Source: an uncultured bacterium (lineage in GTDB: Bacteria > Patescibacteriota > Minisyncoccia > Minisyncoccales > RBG-13-42-11). Taken from it: 64,000 nt of DNA. How positions within the stretch are numbered: position 1 is the stretch's first letter; each line of letters opens with the position of its first letter. The DNA lies in assembly GCA_963790795.1 (NCBI GenBank), contig CAWBPO010000001.1, positions 140,073 to 204,072 of the forward strand, read 5' to 3'. The notes below the pieces were generated by a model. It was not told the origin of the DNA, ran no database searches, and worked only from the letters and a program-made list of their open reading frames with translations. The position numbers and the translations under genes were made by a program. Of this stretch, positions 44,573 to 45,775 are shown piece by piece.

Positions 44573-45775
44573 TTAGATTAATTTCTTTTTCAAAAAAATG
44601 ATTATTGTTCCGGAAAGAAGAGCAAAACTTAGAGCGGTTAAAAAGACGGGAAAAGGAGTTTTAGTTTTTGGAATTTGTTCGCTGACAGTTGCCAATTGTT
44701 GGGTTTCAAATTGGTTTCCTTCTGTCTCTTTTTGGCTGTTTTCAGATTGGCCAGTTGATAAGGGCAATATATTGGTTGATCCCGGAGTTAAGACAGCGCT
44801 CCAAACCCAGTCATTTTCTATCCTATTATACGATTCGCCCCTAGGAGCTTTTTTATAGCTTACGCTGTCTGTTACGTTTCCGTTCGGCTGAATAAATGAT
44901 AACCCATCTTCGCCATTATTCAAAGTAATTTTAGTGGTTGGCCGTTCAATGATCAAAAATCCTTTAGATTTAATTTTTGTATTAGAAGGAAAAGTGTAAA
45001 TGTTGGTTTGGCCAACAACATCAACTATTTGCCAGTTGGAAAGGTCTATTTCAAAATCGTTCTGATTGAAAATTTCAATCTATTCTTCTTTTTCATCTTG
45101 TCCTTCAGGAGAGGGAAGGACTTCATTAATAATAATGCCAGAAGGATAATCCTTTTGCGTCTGTTGAGGGTTCGCCTCAACGGTTTTTTCGCTTTCTTGT
45201 TGAGGATAGTTTTCAGCAAGGATGTTTTTACTTTTTGGCGTTCCTCCTGGGGATTGGCTTGCCTGCCAATTTCCAGCGTCATCCCCCGATAATTCAGAAA
45301 CTTTTCTTTCCATTGTTTGTTTCGTGCTGTTGTCTCAGTTAAACCATTTAGAAGAGCAATCAACTTCATCTATTAATTTACCAGAAGAGTCAAAAAGACT
45401 TAATAATTCTCCGTTGTTGCTCAATGCGCCGCTGTAAATTTTATCAGCTGAAATATCTTGTACCGTATTATCATTGGTTCTTTCTATTAAGTAAAAAGAA
45501 AAAGCAGAGATTGAGCCGCTTAGGTTTATTTTGGGCGTTCCATCTTGGGAAATTACTTGCCAATTATCAAGGATTATTGGATGTCCTGTGTTGTTATATA
45601 ATTCTATCCATTCGTCGCTTGAGGAAACGTTTGTTCCCATCCAGGCGATTTCATTTATGACCACTTCCAAAGGTTCAGCGGCTTGTGTGCCGAATGCGGC
45701 AGAAAGAAACAAAAAAACTAAAAAAATTAGCCTGAGTTTCAAACAAATGTTTCCAGGTCTTGACAAAGATATCAT
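44573..45775 (-). pseudogene. Two-lamin-tail-domain (LTD) surface protein with C-terminal TM anchor, one frame interrupted by in-frame TGA and TAG
   Basis: The track ORFs 45335-45775, 45080-45313 and 44573-44956 all share one frame (end coordinates are equal mod 3). LTD1 reads VVINEIAWMGTNVSSSDEWIELYNN and LTD2 reads IIINEVLPSPEGQDEKEE*IEIFNQ. The stops are at 45335-45337 (TGA) and 45080-45082 (TAG). Confidence 0.65.

Follow-up and report, generated by a model that had tools for sequence, protein, structure and literature searches.

The stretch of DNA analysed here, called the window below, comprises 64,000 nucleotides (nt) of contig CAWBPO010000001.1 (positions 140,073 to 204,072 of the forward strand; GenBank assembly GCA_963790795.1) from an uncultured, ultrasmall bacterium of the Patescibacteriota, and our subject is a gene on its minus strand for a predicted surface protein with two lamin-tail domains (LTD1 and LTD2), the frame of which is broken by two stop codons. 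Translation of the minus strand over 45775..44573 gives a single frame of 401 codons, the final TAA included, in which codon 147 is an in-frame TGA (45337..45335, context SKWFN*DNS) and codon 232 an in-frame TAG (45082..45080, context KEE*IEIFN). Three open reading frames (ORFs) share this frame: ORF1 at 45335-45775 (146 amino acids, aa), ORF2 at 45080-45313 (77 aa) and ORF3 at 44573-44956 (127 aa). Taken as a whole, the frame encodes, in order, a hydrophobic N-terminal signal, LTD1 (VVINEIAW...DEWIELYNN), a polar linker, LTD2, a low-complexity linker, a C-terminal hydrophobic helix and the residues KKKLI; LTD2 starts as IIINEVLPSPEGQDEKEE*IEIFN, the stop being the TAG of codon 232. It is the sole gene with internal stops in the window.

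When the two stops are replaced by Gly at 147 and Trp at 232 (the repaired protein), a Pfam search finds two LTD domains (PF00932; 104.1 bits against a gathering cut-off of 34.3), and ORF1 alone still matches PF00932 with 47.2 bits over residues 33-139. The N-terminal signal and the C-terminal transmembrane helix are both present, as judged from the translation and from the model of an orthologue. No frameshift was found across the 401 codons, and the repaired frame can be aligned over its whole length with homologues of ~400 aa (E = 1e-161). An earlier interpretation made from the letters alone (the sequence-only reading) had assigned the three ORFs to one 401-codon frame for a protein with signal peptide, LTD1, linker, LTD2 and C-terminal transmembrane anchor, and had described that frame as otherwise clean and without frameshifts; translation of 45775..44573, the Pfam search, the orthologue model and the homologue alignment all agree with this description. 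The parts of the gene are listed here, with L083 denoting a near-identical relative described below and P0013 the modelled orthologue.

44573..45775, minus strand: whole disrupted LTD gene, with signal peptide, LTD1, linker, LTD2, low-complexity linker, transmembrane anchor, KKKLI tail and TAA
45677..45775, minus strand: signal peptide, residues 1-33, from translation and alignment; overlaps the -35 box of an antisense promoter
45227..45670, minus strand: LTD1 module, residues 36-183 (Pfam core 33-139), from Pfam, orthologue model and alignment
45335..45337, minus strand: in-frame TGA, codon 147, reconstructed ancestral codon GGA (Gly), mutated base 45337, from the L083 codon and a family column with Gly at 90-100%
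44771..45148, minus strand: LTD2 module, residues 210-335, from Pfam, orthologue model and alignment; the TAG replaces the Trp opening its second beta-strand
45080..45082, minus strand: in-frame TAG, codon 232, reconstructed ancestral codon TGG (Trp), mutated base 45081, from the L083 codon and a family column with Trp at at least 90%
44591..44653, minus strand: C-terminal transmembrane anchor, residues 375-395, from translation, alignment and the helix at 367-398 in orthologue P0013

Conservation of the gene among Patescibacteria

A search with the repaired protein gave 2129 matches, all from Patescibacteria-type metagenome-assembled genomes and metagenomes, which are mostly 390-440 aa long, collinear with the query over 90-100% of its length and 50-68% identical to it, the best of them (E = 1e-161) at 68% identity and 95% coverage. 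Among the 161 loci retrieved, the gene sits in a conserved slot, with its neighbours on the same strand and in the order GspE/PilB-type ATPase, LTD gene, yebC, ruvC; YebC lies within 4 kb of the LTD gene in 119 of the 161 loci, PilB in 97 and RuvC in 82, counts that include many loci ending at contig edges. The positions of codon 147 and codon 232 are open in all 161 orthologous loci, which excludes a family whose members end at the same positions as three proteins. The few stops that appear in the tblastn alignments of these loci fall upstream of start codons or in the C-terminal low-complexity linkers. Possible in-frame stops elsewhere in the gene were noticed in two homologues, just ahead of the transmembrane anchor in L133 (1335, 1362) and in LTD2 of L071 (2826); they may reflect other, independent inactivation events or errors in the contigs.

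By full-length homology and by its slot, the window gene belongs with an unnamed family of pilB-adjacent proteins of ~400 aa that have a signal peptide, two LTDs and a transmembrane anchor, and it departs from this family in its interrupted frame. By comparison of sequences it is this strain's copy of a gene conserved widely among Patescibacteria, disrupted here. Neither a paralogous LTD gene nor a separate ComEA-like helix-hairpin-helix (HhH) gene that might compensate was found in the 64-kb window.

Origin of the two stop codons

Alignments of 28, 109 and 106 homologues place Trp in the column of codon 232 and Gly in that of codon 147, each at 90% or more, with the Gly invariant in the 106-sequence set. 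Trp232 of LTD2 is the counterpart of W56 in LTD1. The most telling comparison is with L083, metagenome contig Ga0066637_10037097, which aligns without gaps to 46500..44995 of the window and, over the 3' end of pilB, the spacer and LTD codons 1-239, differs from it by 20 mismatches (98.6% identity). The LTD ORF of L083 is intact (489 aa); it reads GGA where the window has the TGA, and TGG where the window has the TAG. Because the family column is Gly and L083 has GGA, the TGA arose from GGA when the coding-strand G at 45337 was replaced by T, a transversion that reads C to A on the plus strand; by the same comparison, the TAG came from TGG by a G-to-A change at 45081 on the coding strand.

The sequence-only reading had proposed two independent TGG-to-stop mutations. 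Two independent nonsense substitutions of one base each, in one gene, are indeed what we find, and the TAG does replace a conserved Trp one step away from TGG, in accordance with the family column and the TGG of L083. Only the TAG has this origin, however: where Trp had been expected in the orthologues at both sites, it stands at codon 232 and Gly stands at codon 147, and the TGG transition at 45335 proposed for the TGA is contradicted by that Gly column and by the GGA of L083. That both stops lie one G-to-A step from TGG is true of the code and false as history, and a shared G-to-A signature of the two stops does not exist. The base relevant for the TGA allele is 45337 (C/A on the plus strand), not 45335.

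Age of the inactivation

In 104 of 111 columns with conservation of 90% or more among 109 homologues, the window protein agrees with the family. Two of the seven remaining columns hold the stops, and in the other five the replacement is conservative (L/V, L/I, S/I, I/V, L/F). With the stops repaired, the protein stands at the lower quartile of the family for conserved columns. Over codons 1-239 it differs from L083 by 5.5 synonymous and 3.5 missense changes, which corresponds to a ratio of nonsynonymous to synonymous substitution rates (dN/dS) of 0.17, or 0.26 with the stops counted; the same ratio for the pilB tail is 0.04. About 5% of all single substitutions in the LTD ORF would make a stop, and two stops among ~11 differences are somewhat above neutral drift, not significantly. 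Neither the conserved columns nor the dN/dS of 0.17-0.26 gave any sign of decay beyond the stops. Since the rest of the frame is still family-like, the picture fits a very recent inactivation, with purifying selection acting on the gene until then, in line with the earlier description of a recently inactivated gene.

Predicted effect of the stops on the protein

For the structure we used the AlphaFold prediction for orthologue P0013 (57% identity to the window protein), which was built on a 106-sequence alignment, so that the statements made here concern the orthologue, mapped onto the window protein, rather than a model of the window sequence itself. In the P0013 model both LTD modules are confident beta-sandwiches (pLDDT 80-95), and Foldseek matches the model to the lamin A/C immunoglobulin (Ig) fold (3gef, 1ifr, 6rpr; E about 1e-4, target TM ~0.6). 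The TGA falls after the Pfam LTD core (33-139) and before two confident, conserved LTD1 strands, TMER and NWQ (window residues 155-157 and 170-172), and Trp232, mapped through the alignments, opens the second strand of LTD2. Both stops are predicted by this mapping to cut inside folded LTD modules.

A recent nonsense pseudogene as the likely explanation

We propose the following scenario. The intact protein would be a type-I surface protein with a signal peptide, two extracellular lamin-tail (Ig-like) domains and, at its C-terminus, an anchor in the membrane. Two point mutations, independent of each other, changed GGA (Gly147) to TGA and TGG (Trp232) to TAG in this strain; a first nonsense hit would have been followed, in either order, by a second one that was tolerated. 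Because the organism uses the standard code, as discussed below, translation should end at codon 147, and the product would be a 146-residue secreted stub with neither the last two LTD1 strands nor LTD2 nor the anchor. From the orthologue model, the allele would effectively be null or near-null, and we infer loss of function. All in all, we consider it likely that this member of a conserved surface-protein family became a nonsense pseudogene recently and in this strain only. It would then represent a natural knockout of a gene whose family, so far uncharacterised, is conserved in a large part of the Paceibacteria-type Patescibacteria.

A few considerations weigh against this scenario. Both the signal peptide and the Pfam LTD core lie within ORF1, and a secreted fragment may retain some activity. 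Re-initiation at ORF2, at its ATG, or at ORF3 is a question on which the Shine-Dalgarno motif is uninformative, since motifs of this kind precede only 7 of 51 window genes; upstream regions are A/T-rich, and the organism seems to start translation mostly without a Shine-Dalgarno sequence. The second assembly that shows both stops, described below, may rest on the same reads as the first, and the check for suppressor tRNAs covers the 64 kb of the window, out of a contig of 538,786 nt. Finally, there is no relaxed selection beyond the stops, and a gene that is still expressed would look alike.

Alternative explanations

It might be that the stops occur in part of the population, perhaps on different haplotypes, with intact alleles coexisting and the consensus showing the nulls. 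We regard this as unlikely, and what speaks for it is mostly the behaviour of the locus itself. L083 shares the 5' 717 nt with the window at 98.6% identity and then continues with a different 3' half, the identity falling from codon 240 onwards to no detectable nucleotide similarity; the locus is evidently variable and a recombination hot spot.

44995..45058, minus strand: recombination or mosaic junction relative to L083, from codon 240, 22 nt past the TAG, placed by the identity collapse in the L083 alignment

Beyond this junction (1443-2821) L083 has an LTD2 that differs from the one in the window, then an HhH domain of ComEA type and a transmembrane anchor, and its LTD gene is followed by an ORF rich in helix-turn-helix motifs (2208-2819) in place of yebC. 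In that ORF a LAGLIDADG-like motif, 'AYLIGFRLGD', was seen by eye only. The closest genome, L041, likewise has a different protein, HhH-LTD-transmembrane anchor, in the same slot. The LTD protein also diverges far faster than its neighbours (64-68% against 84-93% identity for PilB and YebC): in L041 the identity to the window is 87% for PilB, 84% for YebC and 64% for the LTD protein, and in L002 it is 93% for YebC and 67% for the LTD protein. This is a recombining, fast-evolving surface-protein locus, and for that reason the minority view of a maintained on/off polymorphism stays alive. The second assembly offers a further hint, its contig being just 1962 nt long, a length in keeping with breaks of the assembly graph at variants. 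Against coexisting alleles stand the identical bases that two assemblers give at both sites and the absence of intact counterparts from a collection of 15 billion proteins, in which neither the exact repaired protein (G147/W232) nor the version repaired at G147 only is present.

One may go further and imagine that the stops are a maintained on/off polymorphism, or a case of site-specific readthrough, in a fast-evolving, recombining surface DNA receptor. We give this version a small chance. It fits a frame that otherwise shows no decay at all, a mosaic junction that lies 22 nt from the TAG and the shuffling of LTD and ComEA-type HhH domains among the closest relatives. If it is true, null alleles would be selected, for example as an escape from phage or host defence that uses the receptor or as a way to shut off DNA uptake, and they would coexist with intact alleles in the population.

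A sequencing or consensus error, with GGA and TGG as the true codons and an intact gene, would be in keeping with the fully functional look of the remainder of the gene. We nevertheless hold it to be highly improbable, because an independent assembly pipeline gives the identical sequence: Logan contig L001 (run ERR10755944; 1962 nt), possibly built from the same reads, is 100% identical to the window over 43862-45823, both stops included. In addition, the NCBI/ENA record holds a 135-aa protein call that terminates at the same TGA. Substitution errors in a consensus are rare. That two stop-making substitutions should fall in one gene by error, with none detectable in the ~50 other genes of the window, is very unlikely, and so is an error of the assembler.

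Recoding or readthrough would restore a full-length protein if UGA were read as Gly (code 25 of Gracilibacteria and Absconditabacteria) or as Trp, and/or if UAG were suppressed. The TGA does lie exactly on a conserved Gly column, as code 25 would give, and the frame is without decay. The usage of stops in the window speaks strongly to the contrary. Its 51 long ORFs terminate in TAA (38), TAG (7) and TGA (6), the TGA and TAG ending genes of normal length, and no other window gene contains an in-frame TGA or TAG; a scan of the 64 kb for stops flanked on either side by open stretches of at least 70 codons returned only the LTD gene, ordinary gene boundaries and off-frame artefacts. Genomes that use code 25 carry many in-frame TGA codons. 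No suppressor was found among the six tRNAs of the window. Moreover, because the near-identical L083 uses GGA and TGG, the stops are to be seen as new mutations and not as a coding habit. The window uses the standard genetic code, a genome-wide code change is largely refuted, and we put the recoding of these two codons at a very low probability.

Several more specific candidates were considered in this connection and rejected. An alternative genetic code is ruled out by the stop usage and by the lack of any other split gene in the window, and codes 25 and 4, in which UGA is sense, fail on the TGA that terminates 6 of 51 genes and on the absence of other in-frame TGA codons there. Neighbouring ORFs in the same frame might be hidden split genes; the pairs found (ClpP / VirB2-like pilin, PrgI / unknown, YidC / RnpA, two response regulators / Fpg) are all distinct genes. 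Selenocysteine or pyrrolysine was dismissed, without a dedicated test, on the ground that the sites are a conserved Gly and a conserved Trp, for which the closest relative has GGA and TGG.

Fission of the gene into three separately translated, functional proteins is scarcely credible: ORF1 does retain the signal peptide and the Pfam LTD core, and ORF2 opens with an ATG 22 nt past the TGA, but ORF2 has no domain match, ORF3 begins in the middle of LTD2 without a signal peptide, both stops lie inside beta-sandwich modules instead of linkers, and 0 of 161 orthologous loci are split likewise.

Neighbouring genes and a possible role of the family

The genes flanking the LTD gene in the window are those of the conserved slot.

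45949..47256, minus strand: upstream neighbour, a 435-aa GspE/PilB/ComGA-type ATPase, from neighbour comparison
43834..44568, minus strand: downstream neighbour yebC, from conserved synteny
43325-43828, minus strand: ruvC, after yebC, from conserved synteny

The 435-aa ATPase linked to the LTD gene is distinct from a canonical pair of 584-aa PilB (with an MshEN domain) and PilC at 1266-4248, a long way off in the window. In three related loci the LTD slot holds a fusion with a ComEA-type HhH domain: an HhH-LTD-transmembrane protein of 308 aa in L041 (5689-6615; PF12836, 60.5 bits, above cut-off), an LTD-LTD-HhH-transmembrane protein of 489 aa in L083 (726-2195; PF12836, 37.4 bits, above cut-off) and a third fusion in L092 (about 99-1340, by tblastn). 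The LTD protein of the window gave no HhH match (PF12836 / TIGR00426) in the Pfam search. The domain shuffling in this slot suggests a DNA-binding role for the family. Since a GspE/PilB/ComGA-type ATPase always adjoins the gene and a ComEA-type HhH is fused in the same slot, we tentatively suppose, with somewhat less than even confidence, that the family might provide a receptor, tethered to the cell surface, which binds DNA or some other polyanion and acts together with the adjoining ATPase, by analogy with ComEA. The label 'adhesin-like', which the sequence-only reading had used, finds no specific support, and the ATPase neighbour and HhH fusions favour a DNA-receptor-like role instead. Nothing specific was found in the literature on LTDs in Patescibacteria or in competence. 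Should the family serve these nucleotide scavengers as their DNA receptor, a strain in which it was lost only recently would be informative.

Elsewhere in the window, a 39-nt direct repeat (2.1 copies, 95% identity) occupies 43230-43310 in the spacer between tyrS and ruvC, and components of type IV secretion were noticed, namely a VirB2/TrbC-like pilin, a PrgI-family protein and an 821-aa P-loop protein (8411-8827; 29038-29454; 55138-57603).

A structured RNA antisense to the pilB-LTD junction

Between pilB and the LTD gene, two further features lie on the strand complementary to both.

45760-45788, plus strand: promoter TTGACA-17-TACAAT, near-consensus, with an upstream TG and 11/12 matches
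45795-45937, plus strand: conserved ~140-nt structured RNA, antisense to the pilB-LTD junction, from fold, covariation and covariance model

The pilB-LTD spacer measures 173 nt in the window and mostly 145-175 nt in syntenic loci, which have the same arrangement. The segment 45799-45932 folds at -61.7 kcal/mol (z = -5.4, against z = -1.5 for the reverse strand), and the RNA ends in a hairpin followed by a T-run, as a terminator does. In an alignment of 32 sequences we count 43 base pairs in three helices, with 92.5% of the cells paired against 44-60% when the partners are slid, and compensatory changes in 32 of the 43 pairs; in 500 shuffles the observed values were never reached. The covariance model gives one strong match per locus and never two, in 61 loci of a first set (at least 45 bits) and 47 of a second (E up to 1e-9), with scores of 46-139 bits on the RNA strand compared with 26-47 bits on the opposite strand. 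Where other genes intervene before the LTD gene, the RNA stays with the 3' end of pilB.

The -35 box TTGACA of the antisense promoter lies, in reverse complement, within LTD codons 4-6 (TTG TCA AGA), where TTG TCA on the gene strand encodes the conserved 'LS' of the N-terminus, and the ATG of the LTD gene sits in the spacer of this promoter. The overlap with the -35 box accounts for the conserved 'MxxLS' N-terminus of the LTD family. Rfam 15 has no family for the RNA, giving only chance sub-threshold matches (mir-326 at 18.6 bits, TCV_H4 at 16.1 bits), and nothing specific on small RNAs of Patescibacteria was found in the literature. Its conservation and covariation suggest that the RNA may be a new small-RNA class of Paceibacteria-type Patescibacteria; possible roles are those of a cis-antisense regulator of the pilB-LTD transcript or of a housekeeping small RNA. 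Such a conserved, covarying RNA is probably of more interest than the pseudogene.

Comparison with known systems

Several known systems resemble parts of what is described here. As under genetic code 25, a Patescibacteria genome has a TGA where the family has a conserved Gly; unlike under that code, this is a single instance, and TGA is the stop of 6 of 51 genes. The LTDs have the Ig fold of the tails of lamins A/C and B, as seen by Foldseek on the orthologue model with E = 9e-5 and a target TM of ~0.6, and share their Pfam family, whereas sequence identity is ~14%, the cellular context is different and there is no coiled-coil rod.

Bacterial LTDs accompany extracellular nucleases (PMC6085458; PMC8289736), for example ExeM of Shewanella oneidensis, for which deletion of the LTD slows DNA degradation in vitro and the role of the domain is otherwise stated to be unresolved (PMC6085458). 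LTD1 of the window protein gives a weak match to ExeM. The two proteins are alike in having an N-terminal signal peptide followed by an LTD, a C-terminal hydrophobic anchor and an association with extracellular DNA handling, whereas the window protein consists of two LTDs alone, with no nuclease domain (no OB/YhcR-like or EEP). With ComEA the likeness lies in the extracytoplasmic tethering to the membrane, in the PilB/ComGA-type ATPase neighbour and in the HhH of the relatives L041, L083 and L092; in contrast to ComEA, the window protein is without HhH, its anchor is C-terminal and its DNA binding is only putative.

In its single-base stops, its otherwise intact and conserved ORF, its intact orthologues and the standard code of its host, the LTD gene is like the ordinary nonsense pseudogenes of other bacteria, from which nothing essential sets it apart; what this case has of its own is that two hits, with no other decay, fell on a well-conserved syntenic gene in a reduced genome.

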